Part shown: positions 4,022-20,784 of the stretch, in pieces | Layout of the letters: each line of letters starts with the position of its first letter | How positions within the stretch are numbered: position 1 is the first letter of the stretch | Source of the DNA: a virus | Lineage: Duplodnaviria > Caudoviricetes | Virus record (IMG/VR): IMGVR_UViG_3300014204_000172 | Coordinates: 9,127 to 73,126 of that record | DNA length: 64,000 nt | Direction: 5' to 3' (one strand) | Notes under the pieces: model-generated | Told to the model about the DNA's origin: nothing | The model's input: the letters and a program-made list of their open reading frames with translations, nothing else | Database searches by the model: none | Made by a program: the position numbers and the translations under genes

Positions 4022-5563
4022 TTAGATTCTCAAATAGCTACCGAATGTTGAGTATCTTTTCTTTATTTCCGGCTGTTTTTGATTTGCTTTTGGATTGTTT
4101 TTATCTTTTAAGGATTGAAAGAATTTAGCATTATCATTGGTTTTTTGATTTAGTTGCTGTTCTTGTAGTTTAGCTTTATTGTTTAAATCATTAATCGCTG
4201 TCTGCTGTTCTTCTTTCTGTTGAGCTACCTGCTGTTCGTATGTTTCATCTTCTTTAGGTAATCCTGAAATCATCTTCGCCCATTGTTCCAATTTAGGACC
4301 GGGAATAATAACCCCGGAAGCAATCATCGAAGAGATCCAGCTAGCCAATTCATTTAAATCAGGAACCTCAACATCTCCATGGATAATTTTAGGGTAACCA
4401 GTAATACCAGTAAAATGTCTTTCATTTAACTTGAATAAATCCGGTACAGCTTGGCTATTCATGGTCTGACAAATGATATCTAAATAAGCACCTATAGCTA
4501 CTCCGAATGTATTAGTTTTGGATGATGCTAATGCATAAGAGCCTACCTGCTGGTGACCTAAAAGGATCATATCAGCAAATCCATTCATGGCTATTCTCGT
4601 ATCATATCTCTGAATGATTTTATCAGTATCAATTTGTTTAGAGCCACCAGAACTCATTAAAGAAAGAACCCATCCAAAAGGTATAACGATTCCCTCTACC
4701 TTATCTCGTCTGATATTTTGTACAATTGACTTAGCGTTATTTAAAAAAGATACCATTTTAGGATCTTTGGTATCCCAGATATTTGTACCTTCCGGGGCTT
4801 GTAATAATGGTAAACCAGCTAAATCTCGTTCAATACCGATTCCTTCAATAATCTTTAGGTTTTTTTTGTAGTAATAACTTTCATAAGCTCCACGCCAAAT
4901 AGAACGACCCTCTGGATTGTCTTTGATGGATGTAGTACGAAAATGAATAGCTTTGCTTAATGGTATTGTTTTTAATTCATAACTAGGCGGTGGCATTTGT
5001 GTCATTCCCAATAATTCATCGGAAGACTCATCGATAACCCATTCATATAAGGAATCCTGACTACGTATAGGTAGTTTTCTCCAACCGATTAATCCATCAT
5101 CAAATTTAGATCTCATTCGTAAATCAGGATGATCGCCTCTTCTTAGTTTGTATACTTTTTCGTGATAACTAAATCCGTAATCTAAGAAGGATAAAGCCTC
5201 AGCAATAAAATCAATGAATGTTTTATTTAAATCATCCATGCAATCTTTAAGGAATTGTGCTGCTTCCATATCTATTGGATCTTCACTAGCTGGTTCAACA
5301 TCGAATGTAGCTTGTCTAATCATCAGTTCAATTAAGCGATCGACAGCAAAGACAACATCGTCATTATTGGTCATTTCCTTATAAGTTCTGACACCTTTAC
5401 GCCCTTTTAGTTCTTCTAGGAATTCTTCAAAGAATACTCCGGCGTATCTAAATTGACCTACTGCTCCTAATTCCTGATAAACACTATAGCGTTCTCTTTC
5501 ATCTTTAGCTTCGGTAGCATTCATAGGATTTAAAGTAGCGTTACTCGTCGTATCGTCTGGCAT
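4022..5563 (-). CDS. Portal protein
   Basis: 513 aa, between terL and MuF; GYSxHEKVY-like motif, NPEGRSIWRGAY, IEGIGIERDLAGLP and GSYALASSK, typical of this portal family. Confidence 0.9.
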   Translation of the reverse strand: MPDDTTSNATLNPMNATEAKDERERYSVYQELGAVGQFRYAGVFFEEFLEELKGRKGVRTYKEMTNNDDVVFAVDRLIELMIRQATFDVEPASEDPIDMEAAQFLKDCMDDLNKTFIDFIAEALSFLDYGFSYHEKVYKLRRGDHPDLRMRSKFDDGLIGWRKLPIRSQDSLYEWVIDESSDELLGMTQMPPPSYELKTIPLSKAIHFRTTSIKDNPEGRSIWRGAYESYYYKKNLKIIEGIGIERDLAGLPLLQAPEGTNIWDTKDPKMVSFLNNAKSIVQNIRRDKVEGIVIPFGWVLSLMSSGGSKQIDTDKIIQRYDTRIAMNGFADMILLGHQQVGSYALASSKTNTFGVAIGAYLDIICQTMNSQAVPDLFKLNERHFTGITGYPKIIHGDVEVPDLNELASWISSMIASGVIIPGPKLEQWAKMISGLPKEDETYEQQVAQQKEEQQTAINDLNNKAKLQEQQLNQKTNDNAKFFQSLKDKNNPKANQKQPEIKKRYSTFGSYLRI

Positions 5564-18079: not shown

Positions 18080-18144
18080 TAAGTTGTCTCATCAGGGTTA
18101 GTAACTTATTTCTAACCGACTCGGATTTTACTCCGAGTTTCGAC
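18080..18144 (-). ncRNA. Type II hammerhead ribozyme with loop I-3' tail pseudoknot
   Basis: The minus strand reads GTC GAAA CTCGGA GTAAAA TCCGAG TC GGTTAG AAATAAGTTA CTAACC CTGATGA GAC AACTTA. Core CUGAUGA and GAAA, GUC cleavage triplet, stems of 3 (II), 7 (III) and 6 (I) bp, and a 6-bp UAAGUU/AACUUA pseudoknot. Confidence 0.92.
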
Positions 18145-19414: not shown

Positions 19415-20275
19415 TTATTCCTTGTCATTGTTAAATAGAGAAACTTCTGGTTCTTCTATTCTTTCGATCTGTTTCAATAAATATTCCATTCTGCCTTTAA
19501 CTGTTTCTATAGTCCTTAAAATTGACCCACATTCCCCTAATGAGTTATTTAATTCAAGCTTGAATTGTTTGCTATTACGTTTAAAATCTCTGCTTTCTTC
19601 TTCCAGTTTTCTGACTAATTGTTGTTTATAACTATTCCATGTATGATTTTCATTTGTAAGTATTCCTGCTGATTCCAAGAACTTTTTTACTTCTTCATAT
19701 TGTTTGATTTGCTCTTCTAAGTTGTCGTTAGTATTTTTAATTTCTTCCAATTTCATCCAAAGTTTATGTCCGTAATTTTTACCCCAATATTGACCAAGTT
19801 TTTCATTCTGTAAATTAACAATCGCTTCTTTAATTCTTTCTTGTCTTGTCTTTGGTTTATCACTCAAAGCATTATCGGACAATCGATTGATTAATATTCC
19901 TAACAAAAAAGTAGAATCCAAAACTACTTCTCTGTAAGGACTTTTTTTCTTACATTGCATTGTTGTTAATTTTTCGGATATATAAAATAAACCAGCACTT
20001 TCCGGTACTTCTGAAATATTAATTAAATTGGTAGGACAAACGAAATAGAAGTTATTACAAGTCGTTAAATATCTCTGCCATTTATCATCTTGAATGAAAT
20101 CATGACGATTTACCTTAACTTCATACCCGGTTATTTGATCTTTGCCCCATGAAGGTTTTATCGACCAGGCATCTAGTCGACCTTTTTGTCCCGGGATATT
20201 TAATTCTGTAAAACAATGTTCTCCTCGATTCCTACATCGTTCATGGATAACTTTAGTAATATCTTGAGCTGTCAT
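19415..20275 (-). CDS. MmcB-like PD-(D/E)XK nuclease-fold protein with coiled-coil C-terminus
   Basis: RLDAWSI...GYEVKVNRHDFIQDDKWQRY...FYFVCP...PESAGL. Confidence 0.7.
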   Translation of the reverse strand: MTAQDITKVIHERCRNRGEHCFTELNIPGQKGRLDAWSIKPSWGKDQITGYEVKVNRHDFIQDDKWQRYLTTCNNFYFVCPTNLINISEVPESAGLFYISEKLTTMQCKKKSPYREVVLDSTFLLGILINRLSDNALSDKPKTRQERIKEAIVNLQNEKLGQYWGKNYGHKLWMKLEEIKNTNDNLEEQIKQYEEVKKFLESAGILTNENHTWNSYKQQLVRKLEEESRDFKRNSKQFKLELNNSLGECGSILRTIETVKGRMEYLLKQIERIEEPEVSLFNNDKE

Positions 20276-20784
20276 TTTTTCCTCTTGATGTAAGGAACAA
20301 TATAACAGTTAATTTTATTTTCTGCTTTGATCATTTTTAATTGTTGTTTAGTTACCATTTCTGGGTTATCGAAAATATTTCCAATTTTTTTGAAATATCT
20401 CAGTTCGCTTAATTCAACTGTTTCTCCTTCACTAGCTCCTCTAAGATGTTTTGCAATTCCTTTTGCCGTTAATAGTGTTAGTCCTTTATATGTAATATCT
20501 TCTTTATTCCATACAATTACTATTTGGTAATCATCTTGATCGAATGGATACAAATTGCTAGTTAATAAATCTCCCGGATATAATTCTTTATCTAACTGAT
20601 CTTTAGTATTGATATATTGACCAACTGTTATTGGATCTACTTCTGGTTCAAAATAAGAATCTTTTGAATGCTCGGTAATATAAAAATTTCCTTTAGTAGA
20701 TGCTGAGGTTTTTAAATCTCCAAAAATCCACTTATTTTCTCTTAAAGTTTTATGTAGTATTTTCCCTCTGTATTTACTAATCAT
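20272..20784 (-). CDS. YopX family protein
   Basis: KYRGK...WIFGDL...VDPITVGQYINTKD...IGNIFDNPE. Confidence 0.8.
   Translation of the reverse strand: MISKYRGKILHKTLRENKWIFGDLKTSASTKGNFYITEHSKDSYFEPEVDPITVGQYINTKDQLDKELYPGDLLTSNLYPFDQDDYQIVIVWNKEDITYKGLTLLTAKGIAKHLRGASEGETVELSELRYFKKIGNIFDNPEMVTKQQLKMIKAENKINCYIVPYIKRKK

Follow-up and report, generated by a model that had tools for sequence, protein, structure and literature searches.

Type II hammerhead ribozymes (Perreault et al. 2011, PMC3088659; Rfam family RF02276, clan CL00010) have a consensus in which loop I pairs with the 3' tail to form a pseudoknot, present with four or more pairs in the majority of the class. This contact is needed for fast cleavage, and stem II may be as short as 2 bp (PMC3088659). 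In prophages, hammerheads flank genes and cut polycistronic RNAs of ~2 kb in vitro, and they may serve to divide long transcripts into mRNAs the length of a gene (PMC3088659). Clustered prophage copies are known from the Agrobacterium tumefaciens ardA locus, Clostridium scindens and Azorhizobium caulinodans (PMC3088659). Three type II hammerheads located near phage-like genes in Desulfovibrio vulgaris cleave in vivo (PMC8782182), and reviews continue to call the biological role of hammerheads in bacteria and phages hypothetical (PMC6765202). A further example is provided by HHphage of haloviruses HF1 and HF2, which lies 13 nt upstream of a start codon on an early polycistronic transcript; a mapped 5' end there is no more than 3 nt from the cleavage site (PMC3088659).

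Here we describe an element at positions 18145-18078 on the minus strand of the window, that is, the whole 64-kb stretch of phage DNA that was analysed. The data support its assignment as a genuine pseudoknot-stabilised type II hammerhead ribozyme within a long phage operon of small genes. It has the core, the circular permutation and the pseudoknot of the type II hammerheads described by Perreault et al., and likewise lies between genes in a phage or prophage setting. It differs from RF02276 in its AU-richer stems and pseudoknot, in two rare pseudoknot pairs and in a score below the Rfam cut-off. As with the clustered prophage hammerheads, its placement is intercistronic, the proposed role is the cutting of a transcript, and the identity of the downstream gene is not a fixed feature of the group; in contrast to them, it is present in a single copy in a 73-kb genome. 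HHphage resembles it as a hammerhead situated just upstream of a start codon in a polycistronic transcript, but HHphage is a core-variant, salt-dependent ribozyme at the transcript start, whereas the core of the window element is canonical and its position is intercistronic. Overall, the comparison supports an AT-rich addition to the established class of pseudoknotted type II hammerheads, placed between phage genes as is usual for them, and the element itself is an ordinary example of the class described in 2011.

With the glmS ribozyme, the window element shares the predicted self-cleavage within an mRNA that leaves a 5'-OH on the coding fragment. The glmS ribozyme is situated in a 5' UTR and reportedly depends on GlcN6P; Collins and co-workers (2007) reportedly found that RNase J1 degrades its 5'-OH product. 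Unlike glmS, the window element has no evident ligand site, and its new 5' end would be paired in stem I, an arrangement expected to slow decay that starts from the 5' end. RiboJ is an engineered insulator made from a satellite-RNA hammerhead with an added hairpin; insulators of this type give every translated mRNA an identical short, structured leader, independent of the sequence upstream. The window element likewise places a hammerhead just before a Shine-Dalgarno (SD) sequence, but it is natural, type II and pseudoknotted.

Sequence, predicted structure and gene neighbourhood

All features discussed here are on the minus strand, and positions are those of the window. A single A (18145) separates the upstream stop codon from the 5' strand of stem II, GUC (positions 11.3-11.1; 18144-18142), which pairs with the 3' strand GAC (10.1-10.3; 18088-18086). 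Between these strands follow, in order, GAAA (G12, A13, A14 and A15.1; 18141-18138), the stem III hairpin (18138-18119), the cleavage-site nucleotide C17 (18118), the stem I hairpin (18117-18096) and CUGAUGA (C3-A9; 18095-18089), an exact copy of the core. Stem III consists of A+CUCGGA, the loop GUAAAA and UCCGAG+U and has 7 bp, including A15.1-U16.1 (18138-18132 with 18125-18119). Stem I, found both by direct reading and by the descriptor given below, consists of GGUUAG, the 10-nt loop AAAUAAGUUA (18111-18102) and CUAACC, with 6 bp (18117-18112 with 18101-18096). [quoted passage not shown] The 3' tail AACUUA (18085-18080) is fully complementary to bases 4-9 of loop I, UAAGUU (18108-18103), and forms six Watson-Crick pairs with them. 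The covariance-model match (18145-18078) includes three bases beyond this tail.

By direct reading, 21 of 21 pairs of the hammerhead are Watson-Crick, and none of its core positions deviates from the consensus. The GUC triplet occupies 18120-18118 and is followed by G1.1 at 18117, in agreement with the N-U-H rule (H17 is not G); C17 aligns to the invariant GUC column of the family, and scission is predicted between 18118 and 18117. Broken core-adjacent pairs (10.1-11.1, 1.1-2.1 and 15.1-16.1) are among the listed reasons for rejecting candidate hammerheads (PMC3088659). In the window all three are intact: G10.1-C11.1 (G18088-C18142), G1.1-C2.1 (G18117-C18096) and A15.1-U16.1 (A18138-U18119). 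The ORF list contains no plus-strand ORF across the ribozyme.

The coordinates that the earlier note, made from the same sequence, had given for the parts of the ribozyme proved to be correct throughout on direct reading. Its central claim, that the sequence forms an entire type II hammerhead in which loop I and the 3' tail make a pseudoknot, is supported by this reading together with an independent covariance model, the family-wide register of the pseudoknot and conservation with compensatory changes in a relative. Based on these four lines of evidence, we identify the element as a type II hammerhead, which is very probably competent for cleavage.

The element occupies one of the few spacers in a minus-strand block where genes mostly overlap or are a few nucleotides apart. 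Upstream of it is orf59 (18325-18146), a 59-aa ORF that matches no known family and whose TAA stop (18148-18146) ends one base before the ribozyme. On the other side, the SD sequence AAGGAG (18079-18074) adjoins the pseudoknot tail, and the ATG of orf55 (18066-18064) lies 7 nt downstream of it. Thus, the 79-nt gap between the two ORFs is wholly accounted for by the ribozyme and the SD. The 55-aa orf55 (18066-17899), also with no match to a known family, would be the first gene on the 3' cleavage product. It is followed after 2 nt by a gene for a 343-aa ADP-ribosylglycohydrolase (ARH; 17896-16865; PF03747, E 3.7e-65; phrog_6572). The ribozyme had previously been placed two genes upstream of the ARH gene; in fact only one small ORF, orf55, separates them. 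A larger RNA or a tRNA cluster in the gap was also considered and rejected, the gap being only 79 nt and tRNA genes being absent from the window.

Family of phage type II hammerheads

IMG/VR viral loci were searched with two patterns that fixed only the core letters and stem II, the second of which yielded at least 136 distinct matches, the window's own included. GAAA and CUGAUGA are accordingly invariant in the family (104 of 104 members in the alignment described below), which carries no evidential weight since the core letters were imposed by the pattern; stems I and III and the pseudoknot were not imposed. Stems I and III are nevertheless formed in 126 of the 136 matches listed. Among the 126 listed matches that pass the descriptor (again counting the window), 88 have a pseudoknot with at least five of six pairs in the register of the window, namely loop I positions 4-9 with the 6 nt directly after stem II.

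A non-redundant alignment (A1) was built from 104 family members, with the window left out. Stems are paired in 99% of cases in A1 and the pseudoknot in 76.6%. The pseudoknot helix covaries. The covariation score on this alignment is 0.679, compared to 0.162 in shuffles and ~0.1 with slid partners. Stem II is 99% paired, and its middle pair covaries. The covariance model R1, derived from A1 and run with filters off, recovered the window element at 18145-18078 with 55.6 bits (E 1.7e-14). The next best match in the whole 73.4-kb genome scored 9.6 bits; because R1 gives only one significant match, the hammerhead is single-copy in this genome.

The geometry of the window element is that of the family mode: a 6-bp stem I, a 10-nt loop, a 3-bp stem II and a 6-nt tail directly after it. 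Two of its pseudoknot pairs are uncommon in the family, a G-C and a U-A at positions that usually have C-G, and both are fully compensated.

Conservation in related phages

A protein search gave one close homologue of the ARH protein (P0002, 72% identity). It is encoded on a 10.4-kb JGI contig (L152) that is syntenic with the window. The gene order there is YopX-like, 288 aa, 154 aa, further genes, 59 aa, an 80-nt gap, 55 aa, ARH and 65 aa. Amino acid identity between the two loci is 72% for ARH and 70% for both orf59 and orf55, and the DNA of the flanking genes is 72-76% identical. In the window, the stretch farther upstream (19415-20784, minus strand) encodes an MmcB-like/PDDEXK-type "DNA repair" protein (286 aa; phrog_5429, E 2e-20) and a YopX-family protein (170 aa), and both of these genes are syntenic in L152.

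In L152 a hammerhead lies between the same two ORFs, orf59 and orf55, and scores 61.1 bits with R1. The two ribozymes differ only in three pair swaps, loop III and one base of loop I. One compensatory change affects stem III (U-A in the window, C-G in L152), and two affect stem I (G-C to A-U and A-U to G-C). Loop III is shorter in L152, and the U-to-C change in loop I produces a C.A mismatch in the pseudoknot (4+1 pairs), so that this contact is weaker there. The core, including GAAA and CUGAUGA, stem II, the tail and the SD are identical in the two copies. The L152 variant of the ribozyme was also found in three further assemblies from other samples.

Among 5.8 billion proteins, homologues of orf55 form only two clusters (91% and 67% identity), both encoded upstream of an ARH gene. 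The closest relative, with an orf55 product 91% identical to that of the window, is on contig L155, which starts inside the hammerhead core at UGAUGAGAC, with CUGAUGA present at this start. In L155:1-28, UGAUGAGAC, the tail AACUUA and the SD are identical to those of the window, and the orf55 homologue is directly upstream of an ARH gene. Relatives thus provide two distinct full copies and one truncated copy, so that local covariation rests on a single pairwise comparison. As judged from these sequences, the ribozyme-orf55-ARH arrangement is conserved within a small phage group, with one informative full-length comparison.

These comparisons bear on the proposal that the element is a silent or very slow relic of a phage ancestor and that the spacer is merely a structured intergenic region. 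The AU-rich stems and pseudoknot (UAAGUU/AACUUA), weaker than those of GC-rich family members, the mismatch in the L152 pseudoknot and the inactivity of some predicted hammerheads in published assays (PMC3088659) are all compatible with such a relic. On the other hand, ~26 bases of the core, stem II and tail are invariant despite ~25% DNA divergence in the flanking genes, all three stem substitutions relative to L152 are compensatory, the core shows no deviation from the consensus and the geometry is that of the family mode. Given the invariant core and the compensatory changes, loss of activity is quite unlikely, and a functional ribozyme is the preferred reading.

The earlier note had asked whether related phages keep the ribozyme upstream of ARH. 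They do so in L152 and in the truncated L155. In 150 other hammerhead-bearing viral loci, tblastn with ARH, orf55, orf59, the 175-aa orf175 and six other neighbours found no match. A general association between hammerheads and ARH is therefore rejected, as 0 of these 150 loci encode ARH or a homologue of the nine neighbours. Likewise, no hammerhead was found near the bacterial ARH homologues L153 and L154 (~50% identity). Relatives of the locus came from protein searches and from the contigs of the proteins found; a 1.1-kb blastn query had no match among 50,697 phage records, and no ARH relatives were found by search among viral contigs.

Sensitivity of the Rfam model

A search with Infernal and the Rfam Hammerhead_II model, proposed earlier as a check, failed to report the window element in four scans. 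RF02276 (Rfam 15) gave no match at the gathering score in the whole window, no match at E up to 10 on 281-nt and on 70-nt segments, and no match in the whole 73.4-kb genome. Other Rfam matches near the element were a partial 12-bit alignment to Hammerhead_3 and a 17-bit match to "freshwater-2" driven by the SD region. The L152 orthologue aligned to RF02276 over its full length with 32.5 bits (E 1.2e-5, local search), below the gathering cut-off of 37 bits, which is an operational threshold rather than a biological feature.

Some of the viral type II hammerheads found by the patterns were recognised by RF02276 at 37-56 bits. No gathering-level match was obtained for the copies in L015, L027, L011, L030, L020 and L028:4829-4894, all of which have well-formed stems and pseudoknots. 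Because RF02276 also misses these other clean phage copies, we attribute the missing Rfam match in the window to limited sensitivity of the model and do not count it against the ribozyme. The consensus printed for RF02276 has a strong bias to G and C. The GC content is 38% for the window element and 45% for the L152 orthologue, compared to about 60-66% for the Rfam-recognised examples in this dataset. The Rfam model appears to be biased toward GC-rich seeds, and census figures for low-GC phage type II hammerheads are probably underestimates. The descriptor and R1 recover many more phage copies than RF02276, which misses AT-rich members such as that of the window.

Chance resemblance and alternative structures

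The type II descriptor requires, in order, GAAA, a hairpin with 4 or more bp that ends in U, any base but G, a second hairpin with 4 or more bp and CUGAUGA, enclosed by a stem II with at least 2 bp and G10.1-C11.1. On both strands of the 64-kb window it matches exactly once, at this element. Among 1000 dinucleotide-preserving shuffles, one contained any relaxed match and none had equally good stems, the pseudoknot being left uncounted.

The missing Rfam match and a local fold z-score of only -2.6 could be taken to indicate a chance resemblance in AT-rich intergenic DNA or a structure serving another purpose, for example transcription termination or RNase III cleavage. A reading of this kind is extremely improbable in view of the shuffles (0 of 1000 equal), the 55.6 bits obtained with the covariance model and the full-length Rfam alignment of the L152 orthologue. 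A terminator in particular is contradicted by the absence of a U-tract after both hairpins, and no terminator-like site was called there. A chance origin of the hammerhead is excluded computationally.

In the minimum free energy fold of a 181-nt context, stem III is kept and stem I is lost to long-range pairing with the coding region of orf59; this fold has an ensemble frequency of 0.002 and a z-score of -1.3, which is not significant. The segment GGUAGUUAUUUCU of the orf59 coding region (18179-18167) can pair with AGAAAUAAGUUACU (18112-18098), which spans the 5' end of stem I, loop I and the 3' strand of stem I. An anti-ribozyme regulatory helix formed by orf59 (~18179-18167) with loop I and the 3' strand of stem I was set aside, because the z-score is not significant and the upstream partner is substituted in L152, where the substitution weakens the alternative pairing.

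Intercistronic placement in the family

The wedging of the ribozyme between a stop codon and an SD is typical for the family. The element starts within -2 to +5 nt of the stop codon of a long ORF in 76% of cases, compared to 3% of random positions in the same loci. An SD followed by a start codon is found 14-40 nt after stem II in 76% of cases (6% of random positions). Both contacts occur together in 58%, compared to 0.2% of random positions. Since the 150 other loci have no homologues of ARH or of its neighbours, the ribozyme is tied to a type of position and not to a particular gene. This agrees with published work, in which the genes flanked by prophage hammerheads differ from case to case (PMC3088659).

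Proposed action on the operon transcript

The best overall explanation, which we consider likely, is a genuine ribozyme that converts one operon transcript into two mRNAs. The transcribed RNA would fold co-transcriptionally and cut itself after C18118. The upstream product (orf175 to orf59) would end in the stem III hairpin followed by UC bearing a 2',3'-cyclic phosphate. A 5'-OH G, the first base of the stem I hairpin, would begin the downstream product, which carries orf55, ARH and the genes after them, with the SD located 38 nt beyond the new 5' end. In this way, one polycistronic transcript would give rise to two mRNAs with uncoupled decay and translation. That such cleavage takes place in the infected cell and processes this operon is, as far as the sequence can indicate, fairly probable.

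Hairpins at the 5' and 3' termini of RNAs generally impede end-dependent decay. In the type II topology, hairpins would cap both new ends, so that both products would be stabilised and the downstream one would not be destroyed; for this reason insulation or stabilisation of both products is the expected outcome. Stabilisation or insulation as the specific effect of cleavage is a tentative assignment, and the direction of any stability effect is a matter of inference only. The earlier note had suggested, by analogy with glmS, that the 5'-OH product might be degraded by RNase J1. This analogy is doubtful: the new 5'-OH base is paired in stem I, which more likely protects the RNA. Its further suggestion that cleavage separates the orf55-ARH message from the upstream operon and may set its stability or translation would fit the strictly intercistronic placement of the family.

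A promoter-like sequence, TTGATT-16-TATAAT (18931-18904, minus strand), is a putative start for this transcript. It lies in a 91-nt gap upstream of orf175, ~780 nt before the cleavage site. As a match from a consensus scan only (10 of 12 positions), it may possibly mark the starting point of the RNA on which the ribozyme would act. Together with a second promoter-like site (22289-22262, minus strand; 10 of 12 positions), it is one of the two best such sites on the gene strand, and both are in two of the few intergenic gaps. An internal promoter in orf59 (18177-18149; 9 of 12 positions), which would start transcription within the element, was dismissed as a low-quality consensus match.

The efficiency of cleavage in vivo is uncertain, as a ribosome terminating at the orf59 stop and a ribosome initiating at the orf55 SD would overlap the fold. 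A different scenario is built on this overlap: cleavage would not be constitutive but gated by translation, so that the transcript is cut mainly when poorly translated and the translated pool stays polycistronic. A ribosome terminating at the orf59 stop would cover stem II, GAAA and part of stem III, and one initiating at the tail-abutting SD would compete with the pseudoknot. The stop 1 nt upstream and the SD directly after the tail are consistent with such gating, as are the contacts in the family, where the stop of most members overlaps or touches the element start and the joint occurrence of both contacts far exceeds that at control positions. Regulated cleavage of phage hammerheads was also raised as a possibility by Perreault et al. 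(PMC3088659). However, tight packing is general in this operon, so that simple genome compaction explains the juxtaposition, and across the family the distance from the tail to the SD varies over ~4-25 nt, a spread that does not point to a fixed steric geometry. Gated cleavage is thus unlikely. The probability is similarly small that the wedging between stop and SD is functional, with the hammerhead sensing the state of translation and cutting only those transcripts that ribosomes leave unoccupied; if true, such a sensor would reset the ratio of the orf55-ARH message to the upstream message during infection.

Processing of the transcript into two mRNAs is the reading that we retain. The locus offers a clean minimal test case for operon processing by hammerheads and its consequences for the flanking messages, because the ribozyme is single-copy, fills one gap and has a canonical core, a compensated syntenic relative and a recognisable ARH gene downstream.

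Hammerhead arrays in other viral contigs

Some of the viral contigs contain arrays of type II hammerheads. Seven Rfam matches in ~2.5 kb are found at L016:9828-12349, and three Rfam type II matches are found at L017:2728-4942. Four pattern matches with a spacing of ~250-370 nt occur at L005:2126-3096, and two Rfam matches combined with the pattern match at 4829-4894 occur at L028:1229-4894. In each of these four arrays, the hammerheads apparently lie on either side of single small genes. In L016, a 102-nt segment located ~1.1 kb downstream of the array (L016:13474-13575) matches the Rfam tmRNA model with 61.6 bits, covering the two ends of the model only; it may represent a tRNA-like domain or an attachment-site remnant.
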